From the NCBI RefSeq assembly GCF_058153355.1, contig NZ_CM177019.1: a stretch of 64,000 nucleotides of DNA. One strand, 5' to 3'. Position numbers and translations under genes: made by a program. Numbering within the stretch: the first letter of the stretch is position 1; the number at the start of each line of letters is the position of its first letter. The notes beneath the pieces are model-generated. The model did not search any database, had not been told where the DNA came from, and worked only from the letters and a program-made list of their open reading frames with translations. Shown here in pieces: positions 19,069 through 51,760 of this stretch.

Positions 19069-19190
19069 TGGTGGGTCGTGCAGGATGACTCACTTCGCTC
19101 GCCCTTCGGGCCGTCGCCGCAAGCGGCTCCGTTGTTTCGCTGCGCTCTACTCGAACCTGCAGCAGGTTCGAATCTTTGAATATCGCAGAT
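19069..19190 (-). other. decayed tRNA-Lys remnant (3'-terminal 17 nt plus degenerate T-arm-like fragment)
   Basis: tggtgggtcgtgcagga (complement of tRNA-Lys 3' end incl. CCA) followed by non-tRNA sequence containing ctcgaacctgcagcaggttcgaatc; flanked on both sides by identical terminator hairpins. Confidence 0.5.
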
Positions 19191-19193
19191 AGC

Positions 19194-19220
19194 AAAAAAG
19201 CGCCTTTAGGGCGCTTTTTT
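19194..19220 (-). terminator. second copy of the same terminator hairpin immediately 3' of tRNA-Lys 19225-19300
   Basis: Identical A6-GCGCC-tttag-GGCGC-T6. Confidence 0.65.
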
Positions 19221-19224
19221 ACAT

Positions 19225-19300
19225 TGGTGGGTCGTGCAGGATTCGAACCTGCGACCAATTGATTAAAAGTCAACTGCTCTACCAACTGAGCTAACGACCC
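19225..19300 (-). tRNA. tRNA-Lys (anticodon UUU)
   Basis: 76-nt exact reverse-complement match to the E. coli tRNA-Lys sequence as recalled, CCA encoded. Confidence 0.9.
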
Positions 19301-19348
19301 ATACGGGTGTTACCTGAATGATTTCTACTCGGGACCAATCTTTAATAT

Positions 19349-19419
19349 TGGTGGATCGTGCAGGATGACTCGCTTCGCTCGCCCTACGGGCCGTTGCTGG
19401 CGCAACGTTATCCTTCACG
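19349..19419 (-). repeat. spacer repeat unit beginning with a tRNA-Lys 3'-end mimic (one mismatch)
   Basis: tggtggatcgtgcagga + tgactcgcttcgctcgccctacgggccgttgctggcgcaacgttatccttcacg; near-identical to the copy at 19841-19913. Confidence 0.7.
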
Positions 19420-19446
19420 CTTAACATCTGAGTTTGATGTTAAAAC

Positions 19447-19522
19447 TGGTGGGTCGTGCAGGATTCGAACCTGCGACCAATTGATTAAAAGTCAACTGCT
19501 CTACCAACTGAGCTAACGACCC
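19447..19522 (-). tRNA. tRNA-Lys (anticodon UUU)
   Basis: 76-nt exact match to the tRNA-Lys copy at 19225-19300. Confidence 0.9.
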
Positions 19523-19525
19523 GAG

Positions 19526-19601
19526 TGGTGGGTGATGACGGGATCGAACCGCCGACCCCCTCCTTGTAAGGGAGGTGCTCTCCCAGCTGAGCTAATCACC
19601 C
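19526..19601 (-). tRNA. tRNA-Val (anticodon UAC)
   Basis: 76-nt reverse-complement match to E. coli tRNA-Val(UAC) as recalled; 3-nt spacer to the adjacent tRNA-Lys. Confidence 0.9.
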
Positions 19602-19651
19602 GATACTGCGCTGGATACTACAAACTACTTCCACCGAACCCACCGCATTAG

Positions 19652-19727
19652 TGGTGGGTCGTGCAGGATTCGAACCTGCGACCAATTGATTAAAAGTCAA
19701 CTGCTCTACCAACTGAGCTAACGACCC
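19652..19727 (-). tRNA. tRNA-Lys (anticodon UUU)
   Basis: 76-nt exact match to the other tRNA-Lys copies. Confidence 0.9.
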
Positions 19728-19729
19728 GG

Positions 19730-19805
19730 TGGTGGGTGATGACGGGATCGAACCGCCGACCCCCTCCTTGTAAGGGAGGTGCTCTCCCAGCTGAGCTAAT
19801 CACCC
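19730..19805 (-). tRNA. tRNA-Val (anticodon UAC)
   Basis: 76-nt match identical to copy at 19526-19601; 2-nt spacer to tRNA-Lys. Confidence 0.9.
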
Positions 19806-19840
19806 GATACTACGCTGGATACTACAACTAACTAGGTTAG

Positions 19841-19913
19841 TGGTGGGTCGTGCAGGATGACTCGACTTCGTCTCGCCCTTCGGGCCGTTGCTGACGCAAC
19901 GTTATCCTTCACG
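19841..19913 (-). repeat. spacer repeat unit beginning with an exact tRNA-Lys 3'-end mimic
   Basis: tggtgggtcgtgcagga + tgactcgacttcgtctcgcccttcgggccgttgctgacgcaacgttatccttcacg. Confidence 0.7.
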
Positions 19914-19940
19914 TTTTACTACCGCTTCCACCTTAGCGAT

Positions 19941-20016
19941 TGGTGGGTCGTGCAGGATTCGAACCTGCGACCAATTGATTAAAAGTCAACTGCTCTACCA
20001 ACTGAGCTAACGACCC
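19941..20016 (-). tRNA. lysT: tRNA-Lys (anticodon UUU), first gene of the array
   Basis: 76-nt exact match; promoter-proximal position. Confidence 0.85.
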
Positions 20017-20180: not shown

Positions 20181-20972
20181 TTACATCGCGTTCAGACGTT
20201 TTTGCGCCTGTTTTGCGCCATCAGTCCCAGGGTATTTACTGATAACCTGCTGATATACAGCTTTCGCTTTTGCGGTGTCACCTTTGTCCTGCATGATGAC
20301 GCCGACTTTAAACATCGCATCTGCAGCCTTCGGTGACTTCGGATAGTTTTTCACTACCGAAGCAAAATAGTACGCCGCATCATCTTTTTTACCCTTGTTG
20401 TAGTTTAACTGACCCAGCCAATAATTGGCGTTTGGCAGATAAGTTGAATCAGGGTAATTTTTGATGAAATTCTGAAATGCCACCATTGCGTCATCCTGGC
20501 GGGATTTATCCTGCACCAGCGCAATAGCTGCATTGTAATCCGTGTTTGCATCACCGCTTTTCACCGGCGCGCCAGCATTCGCAGTACCAGCATCAGCTGT
20601 CGGCGTCGTTGATGCCGCCGCACCGCTTTGATCGCCGCTGGTTGATTGCGCCGCTGCACCACCGCTGCTGAGGCTATCGATCTGCAACAGGATCTGCTTT
20701 TGCCGCTCCACGACCTGATTCAGTTGATACTGATTTTCCTGAATCTGACCACGCAGGGAATCAATATCGGATTGATTATCAGAGAGTTGTTGCTGGAGTT
20801 GGGTTAAAAGCTGGCTGTGAGCATTAGAAATACGCTCAAGTTGAGTGACGCGGTCTTCGACCGAGCCTGAGCCGACACTACTGATTGGTGCCTGAGCAAA
20901 AGCGGCCCAGGGGGCCGCTATACCAACCAGTAACGACAGACTCAATAGTTGATGTCTGAAGTTACTGCTCAT
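20181..20972 (-). CDS. cpoB: cell-division coordinator CpoB (YbgF), TPR protein
   Basis: 263-aa ORF with signal peptide, coiled-coil and TPR-like repeats; downstream of pal. Confidence 0.9.
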   Translation of the reverse strand: MSSNFRHQLLSLSLLVGIAAPWAAFAQAPISSVGSGSVEDRVTQLERISNAHSQLLTQLQQQLSDNQSDIDSLRGQIQENQYQLNQVVERQKQILLQIDSLSSGGAAAQSTSGDQSGAAASTTPTADAGTANAGAPVKSGDANTDYNAAIALVQDKSRQDDAMVAFQNFIKNYPDSTYLPNANYWLGQLNYNKGKKDDAAYYFASVVKNYPKSPKAADAMFKVGVIMQDKGDTAKAKAVYQQVISKYPGTDGAKQAQKRLNAM

Positions 20973-20981
20973 GCAATTCTC

Positions 20982-21527
<546 letters not shown>

Positions 21528-21537
21528 TTAATTATTA

Positions 21538-22830
21538 TCACAGATACGGCGACCAGGCAGGGAATTTGACCTGTCCATCAGTTGCCGGAAGACGCGCTTT
21601 GAAACGCCCATCTGTAGAAACCAAATTCAGCACAGATCCCATCCCCTGAGAAGAGCTGTAGATTACCATAGTGCCGTTAGGTGCCAGACTTGGCGTTTCA
21701 TCCAGGAACGTGGACGACAGAACTTGTACGCCTCCCGTTGCCAGATCTTGTTTGGCAATGTGCTGCTGCCCACCATTGGAGCTGACCATTACCATAAATT
21801 TACCGTCGCTGCTGACATCCGCATCCTGGTTCTGCGAACCTTCCCAGGTAATACGTTGTGGCGCACCGCCGTTGATATTCACTTTATAAACCTGCGGACG
21901 ACCGGCCTGGTCAGAAGAAAATGCCAGGTTCTGGCTGTCCGGGAACCAGGTCGGTTCGGTATTGTTACTGCGACCATCAGTCACCTGGCGGATCTGACCA
22001 GAAGCCAAATCCATTACGTACAGGTTCAGGCTACCGGTTTTCGACAAGGCGAATGCCAGTTTGCTGCCGTCTGGCGAGAATGCAGGGGCACCGTTGTGAC
22101 GCGGGAATGAAGCCACCTGACGTACAGCACCATTTGCCAGCGTTTGGATGACCAGCGCTGAACGACCGCTCTCGAAAGTCACATAGGCCAGTTTAGAACC
22201 ATCCGGTGACCATGCCGGAGACATCAGCGGCTGCGGAGAACGGTGAACGACAAACTGGTTGTAACCGTCATAGTCAGATACGCGCAGTTCATACGGGAAC
22301 TGACCGCCGTTGGTCTGAACAACGTAGGCAATACGAGTACGGAACGCACCTTTAATGCCGGTCAGTTTTTCAAACACTTCATCACTGGCGGTATGACCAG
22401 CATAACGCAGCCACTGCTTGTTCACTTTGTACGAATTCTGAGCAAGTACAGTACCCGGTGCGCCGCCAGTGTCAACCAGCTGATAGGCAACATTGTAAGA
22501 GCCGTCCGGATTCGGAGTGACCTGGCCGACAACCACAGCGTCAATACCCAGCGCAGACCATGCTGCTGGTTGTACTTCCTGTGCACTACCCGGCTGCTGT
22601 GGCAAACGAGCACGATCTAAGGGATTAAATTTACCGCTGTTACGCAAGTCAGCAGCAACGATGCCGCCAATATCTTCAGGTGCAGCACCAGGACCCGCCC
22701 ACTGGAAAGGAACTACGCCAATAGGACGACCGGAATCTACACCGCTGTCGATCACAATGCGGACTTCAGCGTGCAGAACTGATGCCCACAGTATGAGAAA
22801 ACCAAATGCTACTCGTAATGCCTGCTTCAT
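21538..22830 (-). CDS. tolB: Tol-Pal system periplasmic beta-propeller protein
   Basis: ORF 21538..22833; start at second Met ([21 protein letters not shown]...) giving 430 aa. Confidence 0.95.
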
Positions 22831-22962
22831 CATATCTCCCTTATCTGGACCGATGGCCCACGATAATTTAGCAGAATGTTAACAAACTAAAATACACAAA
22901 ACTACCAGAACCCCGTGTCAACCGGTGCCTGATGTTGACCGTTGGAACAATCAACATCGTGA

Positions 22963-24228
22963 TTACGGTTTGAAGTCCAATGGCGCATTTTTGAACACTT
23001 CATATACTGCCTGGCTTGGTGGTTTCGGGATCTTCGCAAGTTTAGCTGCTGCCAACGCAGCCTGACAAAGTGCGGGATCGCCACCTTCAGGTTTGATATC
23101 CAGTAACATACCATCGGGTGCCAGTTTTATGCGCAGCGTACAGGTCTTGCCTGCATAGGACGATGCGTCATAGAACTTACTTTCGATAGCAGATTTAATC
23201 TGCCCGGCATAGTTATTGATATCGGCCCCTGATGCGCCATTGTTTTTAGTATTACCACTCCCGGCAGGCGAAGCATTGTTCCCTTTCGCCCCTCCCCCCG
23301 TTTTCGGTGCATTCTTACCAGAGCTTAGCTCACCGAAAATATCATCTGCCTCTGCGGCCGCTTTTGCTGCAGCGGCTTTTTCAGCTGCAGCTTTTGCCGC
23401 TGCCGCTTTTTTGTCTGCGGCGGCTTTTTCTGCCGCTGCTTTCTTATCAGCTGCTGCCTTTTCAGCAGCCGCTTTTTCTGCTGCTTTTTTGTCGGCTGCA
23501 GCTTTCTCTGCCGCTGCTTTCTTATCAGCTGCAGCCTTTTCAGCAGCCGCTTTCTTCTCAGCTTCTGCCTTGGCTTTTTCAGCAGCTTCAGTTGCCGCTT
23601 TCTTTCTTGCTTCAGCTGCAGCTGCTTCTGCCGCTTCCGCTTTCTTCTTCAGCGCCGCAGCGGCTGCTTCGGCTTTTTTCTGCGCTTCGGCTGCGGCTTT
23701 GGCGGCTTCTGCTTCTGCTTTTTTCTTCGCGTCTGCAGCCGCTTTCTTCGCTGCTTCTTCCGCAGCTTTTGCATCCGCTTCAGCCTTCGCTTTAGCATCT
23801 GCCGCCGCTTTCGCTGCCGCCTCTTCCGCTTGCTTCTGCTTTAACTCGGCCTGTTTTGCGGCTTCTTCAGCCTGCTTTTTCTGCTCCTGAGCCGCTAACC
23901 GCTCTTTCTCAAGTTGCTTCAGGCGTTCCTGTTCAGCCGCTTGTTTCTCACGCAGTTCTTCCGCAGCCTGCTGTTCCTTCATCTTGCGCTGCTCATCAGA
24001 ACGCTTAGCGCTTGATTCCTGGTTTTGCATGCGTTTGTACTGCTCAACTACCGCACCTGAATCAACCATTACAGCGTCGATGGACGAACCACCGCCGCCT
24101 CCGGCTGAAGCTTCTATATTCTCATCGAACGAACTCCAGATCAGCGCCACAAATAAGATGACATGCAGCACTGCTGAAATAATTATCGCCCGCTTGAGCT
24201 TGTCGTTTTGTTCGGTTGCCTTTGACAC
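22963..24228 (-). CDS. tolA: Tol-Pal system protein TolA
   Basis: 421-aa ORF: N-terminal TM anchor, long Ala/Lys/Glu-rich helical domain, C-terminal globular domain. Confidence 0.9.
   Translation of the reverse strand: MSKATEQNDKLKRAIIISAVLHVILFVALIWSSFDENIEASAGGGGGSSIDAVMVDSGAVVEQYKRMQNQESSAKRSDEQRKMKEQQAAEELREKQAAEQERLKQLEKERLAAQEQKKQAEEAAKQAELKQKQAEEAAAKAAADAKAKAEADAKAAEEAAKKAAADAKKKAEAEAAKAAAEAQKKAEAAAAALKKKAEAAEAAAAEARKKAATEAAEKAKAEAEKKAAAEKAAADKKAAAEKAAADKKAAEKAAAEKAAADKKAAAEKAAADKKAAAAKAAAEKAAAAKAAAEADDIFGELSSGKNAPKTGGGAKGNNASPAGSGNTKNNGASGADINNYAGQIKSAIESKFYDASSYAGKTCTLRIKLAPDGMLLDIKPEGGDPALCQAALAAAKLAKIPKPPSQAVYEVFKNAPLDFKP
23300..23900 (-). repeat. imperfect tandem repeats encoding the TolA Ala/Lys/Glu-rich helical domain
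   Basis: Repeated gctgc/ttt-rich units; translated AAEKAAADKKAAAEKAAADKKAA... Confidence 0.6.
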
Positions 24229-24292: not shown

Positions 24293-24721
24293 TTAGATAG
24301 GCTGCGTCATTAAACCAACCGATTTCACACCCGCACTATGTAACAAGTTCAGTGCTTTAATTATTTCATCGTAAGGCACATCTTTTGCGCCACCGATCAG
24401 AAAGACCGTTTTCGGGTTGGCCTTGAAACGGCTGGACACTTCCGCCACCACCTGCTCTGGTGGTAAACGCTCCAGGCGATCTTTCTCAACCACCACGGTG
24501 TACTGACCAATACCAGACACTTCAACAATCACTGGCGGATTATCGTTACTGCTCACCGCCTGTGATTCAGTAGCGTCTGGCAGATCGACCTCCACGCTCT
24601 GGGTGATGATGGGCGCTGTCGCCATAAAGATCAGCAACAGCACCAGCAGTACGTCCAGCAACGGTACAATGTTGATTTCGGACTTGAGATCGCGACGACC
24701 TCGTCCACGCGCTCTGGCCAT
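24293..24721 (-). CDS. tolR: Tol-Pal system protein TolR
   Basis: 142-aa ORF MARARGRGRRDLKSEINIVPLLDVLLVLLLIFM... Confidence 0.95.
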   Translation of the reverse strand: MARARGRGRRDLKSEINIVPLLDVLLVLLLIFMATAPIITQSVEVDLPDATESQAVSSNDNPPVIVEVSGIGQYTVVVEKDRLERLPPEQVVAEVSSRFKANPKTVFLIGGAKDVPYDEIIKALNLLHSAGVKSVGLMTQPI

Positions 24722-24724
24722 GGC

Positions 24725-25818
<1,094 letters not shown>

Positions 25819-29115: not shown

Positions 29116-29916
29116 GACTCCTTGCTCATCGCATGAAGACTCCGAGAGTGAACCCCGTTAGAAAGGGTCACACGCATGCCCCAATACAAAATTATTTGCT
29201 CGCCTCTATCGTTGCCATTTCATCAAAAGAGGAAAAGACAATGATAAAAAAGTTACAAACATGTTAATGAATAAACCAAATTGATCCCGTAATTATATTA
29301 CGCCGCAAAATCCTTACAATAAACAGGTTTTTATTGAGCAAATTTGCATTTTTCGACAGTGATCAATTTATAGCGAAATTGTCACGATCTCACCAATTTG
29401 ATCTACGACAATTTATCGTGTTTTGCAGATTTTTTTCAAGAATTAAAAATTGATTTATATCAAAACCAACCAAATGTGTTAATTATGTATAAACCATAGA
29501 TCATTGGTGATTTTATTGTTAATTTATTGTGAAATGTTTATGCAACACAATTATTACAATGAAAAGGTATAGATAAAAAACCAGTGTTTTATTTAACAGA
29601 ACCGCCTTATCCACTTTTTATAATACCAATTGATTAGAGTAGCCAATTTGTTGCTATTTTACATAACATATTTTTATCAAAGTTAATTGATTGTTGCCTT
29701 TATGAGCATCGCCGTAAGACCGCCATGTTATTGTTTCATTTGTAATAATCACCAATAAGTATCGATGAGAGAGATATCGCTTAACAGAGGCGACTATGTC
29801 TGCATGAACACAGGCAACTTTCGCCTGATAAACGAAAAATGAGCGATTTTTGCAAGTTAGTTTTTCTATAGCCGGGTACGCTGAGCGCCTCGCTTGATTA
29901 CAATGAGGTTGCTGCC
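29116..29916. promoter_or_regulatory. long AT-rich cydAB control region
   Basis: 801-bp AT-rich non-coding region upstream of cydA with multiple TTGAT-type half-sites. Confidence 0.6.
29450..29463. promoter_or_regulatory. FNR-type binding site
   Basis: Perfect TTGAT-TTAT-ATCAA palindrome about 340 bp upstream of cydA start. Confidence 0.6.
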
Positions 29917-30861
29917 ATGGGTCTTGATAATATAGGTTCTGTTGTCAATCGCTTCTCTGGTTGGCCATCAAATGATCCTCTAAAAACAGATAACGAATCA
30001 ATGACATCACCCGTGACTGTGCAGGTAATAAAGTTGATTGCCGCCATCCTTGACCCACATCGGATAGTCGTTGGTATCGATACACTTTACACAACGCAGC
30101 GCAAAACATTTACCTCAGAGGGTCAACAGCTCATTGAATCAGCATTGCAAACACTTCATGTGATGAATTTAAATAACCTGGAAACAAATCTCGATGAGGA
30201 AGGTCACTATCTGGCTTTTGGATATAACGTTGACACTCCTGACAGAATAACCGTTTCTGCTTATAATGAAAAAAAACCTTTCTGTTATGGCCAATGTCTT
30301 TTAATACAGGATGAAGAACCAGATTTATTTAACCTGGTAAAAATTAAAACCTTTGAAGCCAGGCATAATTATGTTTCTAAATTGATGAGCGATCCGGAAT
30401 TTATGTTTAAATTCAGTTATAGCGCCCAACAAAATAGATTAGAACCTCATCTTCTGGTTCCCACTTATTTCCCTCTGAAAACAAACCAACCGGTTACGCT
30501 AGAGGATGTACTGATACTTTATCGTTTCTTTAAAATGAATGGCGATTTTAATATATTAACATCAGATGAATACATGAGTATCATGACACCTCTGATGAAG
30601 TGTGAGCGTAGTGTCCACGACCATAACAGGTATGTGACGGGCAAAGATGCTCTTCTTCTGGACAATCCTCCGTCTGGTAACCAGATATATTTCCATATTT
30701 CCCCTGACGAATCAGCAACACTTGTCCTTTATTTTTCAGACAATAACCTTGAATCCTTCGTCTTTGAAAATGATATTCCGAGCCAGTATCGACATTTCAA
30801 AATGTTTACCAATTTAGCACTAGTTATTGATCAGTTAACCGACGCCAATCAAATACTTTAA
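29917..30861 (+). CDS. hypothetical protein, 314 aa, no family recognised
   Basis: Long ORF in AT-rich DNA with GAGG 9 nt upstream of ATG; no signal peptide, no TM segment and no motif I recognise; true start may be an internal Met. Confidence 0.5.
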   Translation: MGLDNIGSVVNRFSGWPSNDPLKTDNESMTSPVTVQVIKLIAAILDPHRIVVGIDTLYTTQRKTFTSEGQQLIESALQTLHVMNLNNLETNLDEEGHYLAFGYNVDTPDRITVSAYNEKKPFCYGQCLLIQDEEPDLFNLVKIKTFEARHNYVSKLMSDPEFMFKFSYSAQQNRLEPHLLVPTYFPLKTNQPVTLEDVLILYRFFKMNGDFNILTSDEYMSIMTPLMKCERSVHDHNRYVTGKDALLLDNPPSGNQIYFHISPDESATLVLYFSDNNLESFVFENDIPSQYRHFKMFTNLALVIDQLTDANQIL

Positions 30862-30942
30862 TTTTCTATATATCCCCTATGGTAAATATTACTAAACAAT
30901 ACCTGGGGATTAATTTTTATTACTCACGGAAAGATTTAAATA

Positions 30943-31365
30943 ATGATACCATCTCAGATTTCTTTCAATACTCTTCCTGTCAATGCAACATACGCTTCAG
31001 AGACAACAGTTGACACACAAAAATTCTCTGACATCCTCTACTCTGCGGGGTGTTCCCTAAAGGATCTGGCTTATCTGAGCAGATGTCTGGCATCAATACA
31101 TCCGACTATCGCCAAAAACATTTATGAAACAGAAAATCTCAGCGTTCAAAAATTACTGCATATTGATTGCCGTAGTACAAATGAAATCAAGATAAATATC
31201 TTTTTTGGTCAGCAACGAGAAGGATTAATTGAAATTAGTTCTGACACAGTCATTTTTTCGATACTGTCTTCATTGATTGACTCAGCTATTTCTGAACATC
31301 GACATCAAATCACCGTTAACGATTCAAATAATTCTGAACTATTTTATGAGGATTATACTGATTAA
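30943..31365 (+). CDS. hypothetical protein, 140 aa, acidic C-terminus
   Basis: ORF 81 bp downstream of the 314-aa ORF, same strand and same AT-rich composition; ends ...ELFYEDYTD. Confidence 0.45.
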   Translation: MIPSQISFNTLPVNATYASETTVDTQKFSDILYSAGCSLKDLAYLSRCLASIHPTIAKNIYETENLSVQKLLHIDCRSTNEIKINIFFGQQREGLIEISSDTVIFSILSSLIDSAISEHRHQITVNDSNNSELFYEDYTD

Positions 31366-31908
31366 ATCCACTCTGTGCGAACCTGTCCTGCATTTATGCC
31401 AGAAGTATTAGAATCTTTGCTTAACGTTACTCATACAGTAGCACCTTCATGTACTTCTCTTTTTTACGAAAAATCAAAAGAGCTAACAAAGGTCATTCTT
31501 CGCATGGATCATTAATTATTTGTTATTTTCAACATTATTTTTACATTAAGCATATATGAATTGCAGTGAAATTCGACTTAACTTTTATGAAATGCATTTA
31601 CTCATGGCTAAAAAATCTCCCCAAAATGCAAATTAGAAGTTGATCACAATTATCTCAATACATCAAATCAAGTTAATTTTAAAAATTTAACATTCATGAC
31701 ATTAGTTGACGTAACACGCTGAATTAAAATGAGAATTTAAAAACACACTTTAAACAATCATTTCCCGAAAGACATTTTGAAAATAGATCAATTGCAACAT
31801 TACGGTCAGATAAAGACACTCCTCTGATATTAAACCTGTGCCGTTATGAACGGCCATAAATACGACGTGTGTAACTTAATTTACTCTCTGTCTTACAAAG
31901 GATTACCC

Positions 31909-32358
31909 ATGAAGAAAGCAACACTTGTGATTGGCGTTATTGGCGCGGACTGCCATGCAGTAGGCAATAAAGTTCTGGACCGCGTTTTTAGCAACCATGA
32001 CTTCAGAGTCATTAATCTGGGCGTAATGGTCAGCCAGGACGAATATATTGATGCTGCCATTGAAACTGGCGCTGACGCGATTGTCGTCTCCTCTATCTAT
32101 GGGCATGGCGATATCGATTGTCTGGGCATGCGCGAACGCTGCATCGAGCGTGGGCTGGGTAACATCATGCTCTATGTGGGCGGTAACCTGGTGGTCGGAA
32201 AACATGACTTCGCTGACGTGGAAACCAAGTTCAAAGAGATGGGATTTGATCGCGTCTTTTCCCCAAGTCATGACTTAGAAGATGTTTGTCAGCTGATGGC
32301 CCACGATATCACCCAACGTCATGACGTTGATACTCGCATTCTTGAAGAGGCAATCTGA
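31909..32358 (+). CDS. glutamate mutase sigma (S) subunit, B12-binding
   Basis: ORF 31846..32358; start at ATG 31909 (AAGGA 8 nt upstream); [24 protein letters not shown]... with the DxHxxG cobalamin-binding motif (DCHAVG). Confidence 0.85.
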
Positions 32359-33746
32359 TGCAAATCGTCTCTGTCGATATTGGATCGACGTGGACCAAAG
32401 CAGCCCTCTTCACCCGGGAGGGGGACGCGTTAACGTTGGTTAACCACGTTCTGACCCCAACCACCACCCATCATCTGGCGAAAGGGTTTTTCTCCAGCCT
32501 GGACCAGGTGTTAAACGTAGATGATGCCCTCCCCCTGTTAAACAGTGGTGAGGTTGCATTGAAGTATTCCTCCTCTGCCGAAGGTGGGCTGGCGGTTGCC
32601 GCAATGGGATTGGTGCCTTCTATCACCCTGGAAACCGCGAAAGTAACCGCTCACTCTGCGGGTGCTAAAATTGCGCAATATTACGCCTACAAGCTGAACC
32701 GCCGTGATATCCAGGCACTGGAAGAAACGCAGCCCGATATTCTCTTGTTCACCGGCGGCACCGACGGCGGAGAAGAAAGCTACGGACTGAATAACGCCCG
32801 TGTGCTGGCAGAATCCAAACTCGACTGCGCCATTATTTATGCCGGAAACCGGGATATTCAGGATAAGGTGCAGGAGATCCTCGGGCATAAAGACCTGACC
32901 ATCGTCGACAACGTTCTGCCCGATCTTGACCATCCGAACCCTTTAGCTGCACGCCAGGCTATCTGCGACATATTCCTTAAACGCATCGTTAAAGGGAAAG
33001 GGCTGGATGTCATTGTTGATAAAACAGGCGAAGAACCAATGCCGACACCATGGACGGTCTTTGAACTGGTTAAGGCAATCAGTAACGTCGATCACAGCTG
33101 GAAAGAGTTCATGCTGATCGACATGGGCGGCGCAACCACCGATGTCTATTCCGCCTGTGCCAACACGCTCTCGCCCGACACTGTTTTACATGGCGTACCG
33201 GAACCCTTCGTAAAACGGACGGTGGAAGGCGATCTGGGAATGCGCGTCTCGGCAATGGTTGTTGGTGAAAGTGCGAAAGAGTTAGTCAGTGTGAATTTTG
33301 CTCAGCAACCCGCACAGTTGGACGCTTTTTATCATTACCTCCGTCATCTAGTCGCTCATCCCGACTACTTACCCGCGAATGCAGATGAAAAATATTTCGA
33401 TACCGTCCTGGCCGGACTGTGTGTGGGTTATGCCACCGAAAGACATGCGGGCACCAAAAAAGAGGTCTGCACCTGCGTCGGCAATGTCGATTTACAGATG
33501 GGACGTGATCTGACAACCGTGCGTAAAGTCGTGGGTTCCGGCGGATGGCTCTCACGTGCCAGTCAGTTCGATATGCATCACTGGTTGAAATACCGCGAGT
33601 TAAACGACGACGGTAAACGCATTCTCTTACCGACCGAATTTGAATATTACCGCGATTACCGGGGGCTATTACCACTGCTGGCAAACGTCGCCAGAGTCGA
33701 TCCGCTGGCCGCCGCGCGCACCAGTATTCAATGCTTAACCCTATAA
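32358..33746 (+). CDS. glutamate mutase L component (ASKHA-fold putative reactivase/chaperone)
   Basis: 462-aa ORF with TGATG overlap to the S-subunit gene; N-terminal [18 protein letters not shown] actin-like ATPase motif; sits between S and E genes. Confidence 0.75.
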   Translation: MQIVSVDIGSTWTKAALFTREGDALTLVNHVLTPTTTHHLAKGFFSSLDQVLNVDDALPLLNSGEVALKYSSSAEGGLAVAAMGLVPSITLETAKVTAHSAGAKIAQYYAYKLNRRDIQALEETQPDILLFTGGTDGGEESYGLNNARVLAESKLDCAIIYAGNRDIQDKVQEILGHKDLTIVDNVLPDLDHPNPLAARQAICDIFLKRIVKGKGLDVIVDKTGEEPMPTPWTVFELVKAISNVDHSWKEFMLIDMGGATTDVYSACANTLSPDTVLHGVPEPFVKRTVEGDLGMRVSAMVVGESAKELVSVNFAQQPAQLDAFYHYLRHLVAHPDYLPANADEKYFDTVLAGLCVGYATERHAGTKKEVCTCVGNVDLQMGRDLTTVRKVVGSGGWLSRASQFDMHHWLKYRELNDDGKRILLPTEFEYYRDYRGLLPLLANVARVDPLAAARTSIQCLTL

Positions 33747-33764
33747 CAATTAAGGCTGCAATCA

Positions 33765-35210
33765 ATGGAACTTCGAAATAAGAAATTAACCCATGACGAA
33801 TTCATGACCGAGCGGCAACAGGTATTGAAAACCTGGGAAACCGGCAAGGATGTTGAAAACTTTGAAGATGGCGTTAAATACCAACAAACCATTCCTGAGC
33901 ATAAACGCTTCTCTCATGCCCTGCTGAAAGCAGACAAGGAAGGTAAAACCCTTAGCCAACCGCGCGCAGGCGTGGCGCTGATGGACGAACACATCGAACT
34001 ACTGAAAACACTACAAGAAGAGTGCGATCTGCTGCCGAGCACTATCGATGCATATACCCGTCTGAATCGGTACGAAGAAGCGGCTGTAGGGATTAAAAAA
34101 TCCATCGAAGCCAGAACCTCTAAACTGAACGGTTTACCGGTAGTTAACCACGGCGTCGCAGCTTGCCGTCGCCTCACCGAAACTCTGCAAAAACCGCTAC
34201 AGATCCGCCACGGCACGCCAGATGCGCGTCTGCTGGCTGAAATCTCGATGGCCAGCGGCTTTACCAGTTATGAAGGCGGCGGCATTTCCTACAATATTCC
34301 GTATGCCAAGCGCGTAACGCTGGAAAAATCGATCCGCGACTGGCAGTACTGCGACCGTTTAATGGGGATGTATGAAGAACACGGGATCCGCATCAACCGC
34401 GAACCGTTTGGCCCACTAACGGGTACGCTGATCCCGCCGTTTATCTCGCACTCTATCGCGATAATCGAAGGCTTGCTGGCACTGGAACAGGGTGTGAAAT
34501 CTATTACCGTTGGTTATGGACAGGTCGGCAGCCTGACGCAGGATGTCGCGGCGATCCAGTCTCTGCGTGAACTTGCACACGAATACTTTCAGAGCTATGG
34601 CTATACCGACTATGAATTAAGTACCGTATTTCACCAGTGGATGGGCGGCTTTCCGGAGGACGAATCGAAAGCGTTCGCCATTATCTCCTGGGGTGCTGCC
34701 GTCGCGGGGATGTCTGGTGCTACCAAAGTCATCACCAAAAGTCCGCACGAAGCCTGGGGCATCCCGACTGCTGCTGCCAACATTCAGGGGCTAAAAGCCT
34801 CCCGCCAGATGCTCAACATGGTCAACGAGCAGAAATTCCCGCCGTGCCCGGCGGTTGAACTGGAAATTGAACTGATTAAGAGCGAGGTTCGCGCTGTACT
34901 GAACAAAGTGTTCGAACTGGGTAATGGTGATATTGCGCGCGGTACGGTGCTGGCATTTGAAGCGGGCGTACTGGATGTACCGTTTGCCCCAGCCGCCTGC
35001 AACGCAGGCAAAATTCTTCCGGTCCGTGACAACACCGGCGCGATACGCGTACTGGAAGCCGGAGCCGTTCCATTGCCAAAAGATATTCTCGACCTCCACC
35101 ACGATTACGTTGCTGAACGCGCACGCTTTGAAGGACGCCAACCGACATTCCAGATGGTTGTAGATGACATCAATGCTGTATCCCACAGTAAATTAATAGG
35201 AAGACCATAA
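33765..35210 (+). CDS. glutamate mutase epsilon (E) catalytic subunit
   Basis: 481-aa ORF; size and position (S-L-E-methylaspartase order) match the clostridial glutamate mutase operon as recalled. Confidence 0.8.
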   Translation: MELRNKKLTHDEFMTERQQVLKTWETGKDVENFEDGVKYQQTIPEHKRFSHALLKADKEGKTLSQPRAGVALMDEHIELLKTLQEECDLLPSTIDAYTRLNRYEEAAVGIKKSIEARTSKLNGLPVVNHGVAACRRLTETLQKPLQIRHGTPDARLLAEISMASGFTSYEGGGISYNIPYAKRVTLEKSIRDWQYCDRLMGMYEEHGIRINREPFGPLTGTLIPPFISHSIAIIEGLLALEQGVKSITVGYGQVGSLTQDVAAIQSLRELAHEYFQSYGYTDYELSTVFHQWMGGFPEDESKAFAIISWGAAVAGMSGATKVITKSPHEAWGIPTAAANIQGLKASRQMLNMVNEQKFPPCPAVELEIELIKSEVRAVLNKVFELGNGDIARGTVLAFEAGVLDVPFAPAACNAGKILPVRDNTGAIRVLEAGAVPLPKDILDLHHDYVAERARFEGRQPTFQMVVDDINAVSHSKLIGRP

Positions 35211-36451
35211 TGAAAATAAAACAGGCCCTTTTCACCGCTGGCTACTCTTCATTCTATTTCGATGACCAGCAGGCGATAAAAAACGGAGCGGGTCACGACG
35301 GCTTTTTTTATACCGGAGAGCCGGTAACACAGGGGTTTAACGCCGTACGTCAGGCCGGGGAGTGCGTTTCGGTTCAGTTGATTCTGGAAAACGGTGCGGT
35401 CGCCGTAGGCGACTGTGCTGCCGTACAGTATTCCGGGGCAGGCGGTCGCGATCCACTGTTCCTCGCAGAGCACTTTATTCCGTTCCTCAACGACCATATC
35501 AAGCCATTACTGGTAGGCCGCGATGTGGATGCTTTCCTGCCGAATGCCCGTTTCTTCGACAAATTGCGTATTGACGGAAACTTGCTGCATACCGCCGTAC
35601 GTTACGGATTATCACAGGCGCTGCTTGATGCTACCGCGCTGGCAACCGGCCGTCTAAAAACTGAAGTGGTCTGTGATGAATGGCAGTTGCCACGCGTGGC
35701 GGAATCCATTCCATTATTTGGTCAGAGCGGCGACGATCGATATATCGCTGTCGATAAGATGATCCTTAAGGGCATCGACGTGCTACCTCATGCGCTGATT
35801 AATAACGTCGAAGAGAAACTGGGCTTTAAAGGAGAAAAACTGCGCGAATATGTCCGTTGGCTATCCGATCGGATTCTAAGCAAACGCACCAGCGCACGCT
35901 ACCACCCTACCCTGCACATCGATGTATACGGCACTATTGGTCTGATCTTCGATATGGATCCGCTTCGCTGTGCGCAATACATCGCCAGTCTGGAAAAAGA
36001 GGCGCAAGGCCTGCCGCTCTACATTGAGGGGCCGGTCGATGCCGGTAACAAGCCCGATCAAATTCGCCTGCTGACCGCGATTACCAAAGAGCTGACGCGC
36101 CTCGGTTCCGGCGTGAAAATTGTGGCCGATGAATGGTGTAACACCTACCAGGATATTGTTGATTTCACTGATGCCGCCAGTTGCCACATGGTGCAAATCA
36201 AAACCCCGGATCTGGGCAGTATTCACAACATCGTCGATGCAGTTCTTTATTGCAACAGCCACAGCATGGAAGCGTACCAGGGCGGCACCTGCAATGAAAC
36301 CGATGTCAGCGCCCGCACGTGTGTCCACGTCGCCCTTGCCGCTCGCCCTATGCGTATGCTGGTAAAACCGGGGATGGGCTTTGACGAAGGCCTCGATATC
36401 GTCTTCAACGAAATGAATCGTACTATCGCGCTGTTGCAGGCTAAGGATTAA
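35210..36451 (+). CDS. mal: 3-methylaspartate ammonia-lyase (methylaspartase)
   Basis: 413-aa ORF MKIKQALFTAGYSSFYFDDQQAIKNGAGHDGFFYTGEPVT...; strong resemblance to recalled clostridial/Citrobacter methylaspartase (same length; conserved HMVQIKTPDLG, NETN and KPGMG blocks); TAATG overlap with E subunit. Confidence 0.9.
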   Translation: MKIKQALFTAGYSSFYFDDQQAIKNGAGHDGFFYTGEPVTQGFNAVRQAGECVSVQLILENGAVAVGDCAAVQYSGAGGRDPLFLAEHFIPFLNDHIKPLLVGRDVDAFLPNARFFDKLRIDGNLLHTAVRYGLSQALLDATALATGRLKTEVVCDEWQLPRVAESIPLFGQSGDDRYIAVDKMILKGIDVLPHALINNVEEKLGFKGEKLREYVRWLSDRILSKRTSARYHPTLHIDVYGTIGLIFDMDPLRCAQYIASLEKEAQGLPLYIEGPVDAGNKPDQIRLLTAITKELTRLGSGVKIVADEWCNTYQDIVDFTDAASCHMVQIKTPDLGSIHNIVDAVLYCNSHSMEAYQGGTCNETDVSARTCVHVALAARPMRMLVKPGMGFDEGLDIVFNEMNRTIALLQAKD

Positions 36452-47084: not shown

Positions 47085-47255
47085 TGTCGGTCACCCGTAG
47101 GCCTGATAAGACGCGCAAGCGTCGCATCAGGCATCGCGTGTCGGATGCGGCGCGAGCGCCTTATCCGACCTACATTGATGGTCCCCGTAGGCCTGATAAG
47201 ACGCGTCAGCGTCGCATCAGGCTTCAATTGCCGGAGAAAGCGATAATGCCTCATC
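47085..47255. repeat. REP/BIME cluster between sucB and sucC
   Basis: Alternating GC-rich palindromes cgtaggcctgataagacgcg...cgtcgcatcaggc and gtcggatgcggcgcgagcgccttatccgacctaca. Confidence 0.6.
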
Positions 47256-51475: not shown

Positions 51476-51760
51476 GATTTCCTGCATTTCTTTTGTAGGC
51501 CGGATAAGGCGTTCACGCCGCATCCGGCGCTGTTTGCCTGATGCGACGCTTGCGCGTCTTATCAGGCCTACGATTCCTGCATTTCTTTTGTAGGCCGGAT
51601 AACGCATTCACGCCGCATCCGGCACTGGTTGCCTGATGCGACGCTTGCGCGTCTTATCAGGCCTACGATTTCTGCATTTCTTTTGTAGGCCGGATAAGGC
51701 GTTCACGCCGCATCCGGCACTGGTTGCCTGATGCGACGCTTGTGCGTCTTATCAGGCCTG
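51476..51760. repeat. three tandem ~95-bp REP/BIME units between sdhB and sucA
   Basis: Unit gatttctgcatttcttttgtaggccggataaggcgttcacgccgcatccggcactggttgcctgatgcgacgcttgcgcgtcttatcaggcctac repeated three times with a few substitutions. Confidence 0.7.

Follow-up and report, generated by a model that had tools for sequence, protein, structure and literature searches.

Gene content and identity of the tolA locus

The window, a 64,000-nt stretch of contig NZ_CM177019.1 (RefSeq assembly GCF_058153355.1), carries tolA on its minus strand at 22963-24228. The gene is 1266 nt long, starts with GTG and encodes 421 residues arranged as a transmembrane anchor, a domain II of the helical type and a C-terminal domain. 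The predicted protein scored 552.7 bits against the NCBIfam equivalog NF007065 (cut-off 213) and 310.5 bits against TIGR02794 (cut-off 59.45). The Pfam profile of TolA domain III, PF06519, was matched over its whole length (1-96) by residues 325-419 (E = 2e-38). The translation further revealed that the Ser-His-Leu-Ser motor-binding motif described for TolA (PMC10666116) is intact in the N-terminal transmembrane helix: S18, H22, L29 and S33.

Based on the list of open reading frames between 20000 and 27000, the order of genes on the minus strand is cpoB (20181-20972), pal (20982-21527), tolB (21538-22833), tolA, tolR (24293-24721), tolQ (24725-25417), ybgC (25414-25818), ybgE and cydB. The ybgC-tolQRA-tolB-pal-cpoB cluster is intact, and its gene order is that of annotated E. 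coli loci, MG1655 among them (three loci carrying an annotated tolA). We estimate at roughly 0.95 the probability that positions 23300-23900 are the central part of tolA, within domain II, seen on its antisense strand in an E. coli-type tol-pal cluster. The original prediction had read this segment as coding DNA for the TolA helical domain, and the NF007065 and PF06519 matches and the order of the cluster bear this out. No evidence contradicting the identification of TolA was encountered.

The segment 23300-23900 (minus strand) encodes residues 110-310, approximately, and its composition is extreme: of about 200 residues, 97 are Ala, 44 Lys and 28 Glu (48%, 22% and 14%, respectively). Given this composition and the near-identity of the protein to E. 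coli K-12 TolA, an extended α-helical structure of domain II can be safely adopted from published work (Levengood 1991; Derouiche 1999; Witty 2002, all cited in PMC12204202). A long helical domain II would let TolA span the periplasm and so connect the inner-membrane TolQR motor with TolB-Pal at the outer membrane. In published work, a structured domain II is required for efficient force transduction and for stabilisation of the outer membrane (PMC10666116), and the helical form of the domain is mainly a γ-proteobacterial trait (PMC12204202). TonB, a paralogous force transducer that also spans the periplasm, has a domain II made of repeats of the dipeptides Glu-Pro and Lys-Pro. This domain forms a polyproline-II helix, whereas that of TolA is α-helical, and the two share no sequence similarity; they are nevertheless partly interchangeable in chimeras (PMC10666116, PMC12204202).

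The repeat tract and its length polymorphism

The canonical tandem-repeat tract of tolA lies at 23350-23556 (minus strand, 207 nt) and encodes residues 225-293. It comprises 13 units, each 15 or 18 nt long and imperfectly repeated; this count was obtained by simply splitting the protein at runs of Lys and may be a unit off the gel-sizing counts of the literature. Parsed along the coding strand, the units run from TR1 at 23539-23556 to TR13 at 23350-23364. Each encodes one or two Lys, two to four Ala and then Glu, Asp or Ala, as in KKAAAE, KAAAD, KKAAE, KAAAA and similar strings.

Tandem Repeats Finder (TRF) returned overlapping arrays with periods of 15, 33, 45 and 78 nt over 23352-23571, and a separate repeat-family search also gave the 15/18-nt spacing for units of the tract. 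The best TRF array is a higher-order direct repeat of 78 nt at 23400-23558 (minus strand), with 2.0 copies, 91% matches and a score of 269; each copy holds about five units. Upstream of TR1, at 23557-23841 on the minus strand, lies degenerate Ala/Lys/Glu coding DNA with periods of 12, 15, 24 and 45 nt and a copy identity of about 60-78%. Weaker TRF arrays reach 23841, including some over 23664-23841, and the longest exact repeat upstream of the canonical tract is 12 nt.

The extreme composition of the segment was matched by shuffling codons within it (500 shuffles). Exact direct repeats reach a length of 26 nt, whereas the longest in the shuffled sequences measure 13.8 ± 1.7 nt (maximum 23). 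Similarly, the best self-alignment at a shift of 78 nt has 71 of 78 positions matching, versus 50 ± 1.9 (maximum 60). The tandem structure is genuine, exceeds what composition yields and is concentrated in 23350-23556. Thus, the imperfect tandem repeats that had been described from the sequence are upheld by the 13 units of 15/18 nt, the TRF arrays and the excess over codon shuffles. Their proposed extent, 23300-23900, holds in part: the clean repeats occupy 23350-23556, but the remainder shows biased composition and weak degenerate periodicity.

We evaluated the variability of the tract among complete E. coli genomes, in 5425 of 5426 of which tolA is present. Population frequencies rest on evenly spaced samples of 30 and 60 genomes taken by rank. 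The whole-gene length found in the window occurred in 20 of the 30 genomes (10 differed), and the 601-nt segment had the window's length in 40 of the 60 (20 differed). The length differences seen were −81, −51, −45, −18, −15, +9, +30, +33, +36 and +45 nt, all multiples of three. The modal length, at 67% of the sampled genomes, agrees with the published figure of 66% of strains with 13 repeats.

Thirteen alleles were aligned: that of the window, that of MG1655 and eleven length variants. Across them TolA ranges from 394 to 436 residues and from 10 to 17 canonical units, and the differences consist of whole units. Every gap column of the alignment falls within 23440-23596 (minus strand), a hotspot of length polymorphism that covers TR1-TR8 and about 40 nt of the degenerate units upstream. 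The length of TR9-TR13 (23350-23439, minus strand) is constant in all 13 alleles. The original prediction had called the repeats a known source of recombination-driven length polymorphism. This is correct: it is documented in the literature (PMC3477136) and reproduced here, with about one third of sampled genomes varying. The polymorphism does not extend over the whole 600 nt, as had been implied; the variable part measures about 160 nt (23440-23596). In practice, tolA length can serve to mark strains: it differs from that of the window copy in about one third of complete genomes.

Since the units are multiples of three, changes in the number of repeats tune the length of the protein and do not act as an on/off switch. 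A switch of the frameshift type, as in phase variation, was considered and ruled out: the units are 15 or 18 nt long and all sampled natural variants are in frame. The simple-sequence contingency loci of Neisseria and Haemophilus resemble tolA in their intragenic, repeat-mediated hypermutability and in the bet-hedging role proposed for it. They switch genes on and off by frameshift, whereas the 15/18-nt units of tolA alter protein length and tune function. The published instability of tolA, which is RecA-dependent and MutS-independent (PMC3477136), also differs from that of simple-sequence contingency loci.

The tract, its variation among strains, its dependence on recombination and its effects on tolerance to bile salts, on osmotic and acid tolerance and on filamentous phage were already published in 2012. 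The repeats, treated further in Zhou et al. (2012, Res Microbiol 163:316), were noticed for the first time by Levengood et al. (1991, PNAS 88:5939). Zhou, Michiels and Aertsen (2012, PLoS One 7:e47766; PMC3477136), who name the tolA repeats a hypermutable contingency locus, described the MG1655 gene as having 13 repeats, imperfect and 15 or 18 bp long. Among 234 isolates they found copy numbers of 8-16, and 66% of strains had 13 (PMC3477136). Contraction frequencies are likewise those of the literature: spontaneous contraction occurred at 6.9e-5, a value for MG1655 only, and fell to 15% of this in a recA mutant (1.0e-5 vs 6.9e-5). Mutation of uvrD raised contraction 3.3-fold and mutation of mutS had no effect (PMC3477136). 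The predominant event was a deletion of five units, and some deletions reached the degenerate units upstream of TR1. TR12 and TR13, which sit in the proposed binding region for CpoB (YbgF), were never involved in contractions (PMC3477136). As to phenotypes, the same study reported that in synthetic alleles of 2-39 units deoxycholate tolerance shifted over four orders of magnitude, that alleles of 6, 8 and 13 units gave the greatest tolerance of high salt at low pH, and that plating of phage fd peaked at 13 units (PMC3477136).

The window allele and the mechanism of length change

The window gene and that of MG1655 are both 1266 nt long, encode 421 residues and align without gaps at 98.6% nucleotide identity. 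Of the 18 substitutions between them, 16 are synonymous; ten fall within 23300-23900, and all ten are synonymous. The unit strings of the two tracts are identical, with 13 units each. The window copy is therefore not a length variant of the reference but the modal 13-unit, 421-residue form, the same as in K-12 MG1655, and an ordinary allele. The original prediction had proposed comparing domain length and repeat count with a reference, to be counted against it if identical; this was the outcome (421 residues, 13 units). The discovery value of the copy is accordingly small, as it is the commonest form of a documented variable tract. The tracts also agree in their position in domain II and in belonging to a gene whose natural variants gain or lose in-frame units while TR9-TR13 keep a constant length.

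The protein differs from that of MG1655 by A27V and S69N only, both outside the repeats. A27V (24149) lies in the transmembrane helix, between H22 and L29 of the motor-binding motif; neither it nor S69N (24023) occurs in the 12 other aligned alleles. A search for the exact 421-residue protein, which requires identity from first to last residue, found no match among about 15 billion proteins; this means that the TolA allele is unsampled in that collection, nothing more.

Besides these two residues and the 18 substitutions, the window allele differs from MG1655 in its internal repeats. Two adjacent differences at 23515 and 23512, both synonymous, render TR3 identical to TR8. As a result, GCAGCTGATAAGAAAGCAGCGGCAGA occurs twice on the minus strand as a perfect 26-nt direct repeat, at 23507-23532 and, 78 nt away, at 23429-23454. 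This repeat is 17 nt in MG1655, in which the longest perfect repeat within tolA measures 20 nt versus the 26 nt of the window. The exact 60-nt context of the two changes was found in 15 of 5426 complete genomes and is shared with E. coli Z0117EC0005. An identical tolA was found in none of the complete E. coli genomes; the best match, in Z0117EC0005, reached 99.5%, and 16 records reached at least 99%. The lineage of this allele is thus rare (15-16 of 5426 complete genomes).

The TR3 = TR8 pattern looks like the product of intragenic gene conversion. For RecA-dependent recombination in E. coli, Shen and Huang are said to have put, in 1986, the minimal efficient processing segment at about 23-27 bp. 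The 26-nt repeat between the 78-nt blocks lies within this range, so the loss of five units might be more frequent in this allele. We regard it as doubtful, judging from the sequence, that a TR3/TR8 conversion has taken place and that, with 26 nt within the RecA range, five-unit losses could be measurably more frequent in the rare lineage than in K-12. If it were so, the mutability of the tolA tract would itself be a lineage-specific, evolvable trait.

As for the process behind the length differences, whole units are gained or lost in frame when units, or the two 78-nt blocks, pair out of register. According to the literature, the exchange is mostly RecA-dependent unequal recombination, with RecA-independent slippage accounting for a minority of events. 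The resulting change in the length of the periplasm-spanning helix then tunes envelope phenotypes. The 78-nt repeat is a likely substrate of the predominant five-unit deletion, a link that we draw here and that is not stated in PMC3477136. The expanded alleles hold long perfect duplications of 45 nt (spacing 36), 66 nt (spacing 60) and 68 nt (spacing 78), the signature expected of recent unequal exchange.

Alternatively, the tract might change in length mainly by RecA-independent replication slippage or by single-strand annealing of short repeats. The modal allele has short perfect repeats (20 nt in MG1655, 26 nt in the window), a single unit of 15 or 18 nt separates some natural variants, which is typical of slippage, and the recA mutant retains about 15% of the contraction frequency (PMC3477136). 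However, contraction falls by 85% in recA and rises 3.3-fold in uvrD, which speaks for recombination as the principal route, and the commonest event is a large deletion of five units and not a one-unit step. We consider slippage or annealing as the principal process to be unlikely on this balance, and favour unequal recombination.

It is highly improbable that the 13-unit count is an artefact of a source assembly in which the repeat had collapsed or expanded. Low-complexity repeats are prone to error, and the tolA repeat is indeed garbled and annotated as pseudogene pieces in two public assemblies, NIPH17_0020 and NIPH17_0036. In the window, however, the tolA reading frame is intact, its length is that of the modal allele of about two thirds of complete genomes, and the tract is just 207 nt long. 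Moreover, each unit has its own signature and all 13 match those of MG1655 one-to-one, and the allele lineage recurs in 15 independent complete genomes.

In the two NIPH17 E. coli genomes themselves (1653-1913 of the NIPH17_0020 locus), the tolA repeats are replaced by about 320 nt of non-aligning, A-rich DNA with stop codons. The gene is annotated there as two pseudogene pieces even though the genomes are labelled complete. The likeliest cause of their garbled tolA is an error of consensus or assembly in the low-complexity tract, not a biological change. As assemblies can garble the tolA repeats, pseudogene calls in this gene merit a second look.

Antisense reading frames and neighbouring features

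Two long open reading frames run antisense to tolA on the plus strand: one of 224 codons at 23216-23890, with an Ala/Phe/Ser-rich translation and wobble positions that coincide with those of tolA, and one of 162 codons at 23307-23795, rich in Leu, Pro, Gln and Ser. The plus strand of 23300-23900 contains 7.5% A, versus 25% in the whole window, and its AT skew falls to −0.73. The GCN, AAR and GAR codons of tolA leave the antisense strand nearly free of A, so that few stop codons arise in any antisense frame. In codon-shuffled versions of the segment, the open antisense runs averaged 102, 149 and 69 of 199 codons. The observed runs were 171, 195 and 163 codons, lengths equalled by 0.8%, 26% and 0.6% of shuffles, respectively; the 26% refers to the frame of the 224-residue product. 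The shadow frames arise mainly from amino-acid and codon composition, the order of the repeats adding length in two of the three frames. The original prediction was right that long spurious frames of 224 and 162 codons exist, but it attributed them to the repeats. The codon-shuffle control rules out the repeats as the main cause and retains them as a secondary contribution.

That either frame is a real antisense gene overlapping tolA is, in our judgement, the least credible of the alternatives, although both are long. Neither the 224- nor the 162-residue product matched any NCBIfam family, what the frames encode is low-complexity sequence that mirrors the Ala/Lys/Glu codons, and codon-shuffled tolA yields open frames of similar length. 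All nine substitutions between the window and MG1655 that fall in the 162-codon frame alter its amino acids, and the MG1655 version is broken by a stop codon. The 224-codon frame is open in MG1655, with one amino-acid change from ten substitutions, a pattern that would favour a gene. This apparent conservation follows from the wobble positions that the frame shares with tolA, so the pattern was rejected as evidence of coding; substitutions are decisive against the 162-codon frame but count neither for nor against that of 224 codons. By the genetic code, a stop in the 224-codon frame requires a Tyr, His or Gln codon in tolA, and such codons are absent from the Ala/Lys/Glu tract.

A further point against an antisense gene is the presence of nine motifs resembling intrinsic terminators (a GC-rich hairpin followed by a T-run) on the plus strand at 23352-23766, versus 2.7 ± 1.8 in shuffles. 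GCNGC palindromes and Lys codons, read in mirror image, give rise to these motifs as a by-product. Neither plus-strand frame, 23216-23890 or 23307-23795, should be annotated as a gene.

Several features were noted around the tol-pal cluster. At the pal-cpoB junction, 20943-21081 (minus strand) matches the Rfam CpoB/ybgF RNA thermometer RF02782 with 142 bits (gathering score 51). Downstream of cpoB and 3 kb from tolA, a tRNA array at 19069-20016 (minus strand) holds six genes (four tRNA-Lys and two tRNA-Val) with three RtT-like elements between the tRNAs. The corresponding arrays of E. coli Z0117EC0005 and 98232 hold seven (five tRNA-Lys and two tRNA-Val); the window thus has one tRNA-Lys unit fewer at this second tandemly repeated locus.

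Over 12000-36000, the identity of the window to the best-matching complete E. coli genome that spans this region is only 97.3%, with values of 93% to 99% per kb, and the 9 kb of the tol-pal region are 98.97% identical to Z0117EC0005. From these comparisons, the source appears to be a sparsely sampled Escherichia lineage. The most divergent part is 30000-32000, at 93-94% identity. Based on collinearity with an annotated E. coli locus, the stretch past cydA, at about 29900-36000, carries two hypothetical genes followed by the methylaspartate mutase genes (glmS, glmL and that of subunit E) and the gene for methylaspartate ammonia-lyase. At least 80% of the 24-kb query is covered in one place by only 31 of 5426 complete genomes, so the stretch past cydA is an uncommon accessory region. 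Finally, naRNA4 (RF02564) has four matches in the window, at 51498-51758 (plus strand) and 47100-47170 (minus strand), three of which form a tandem cluster.
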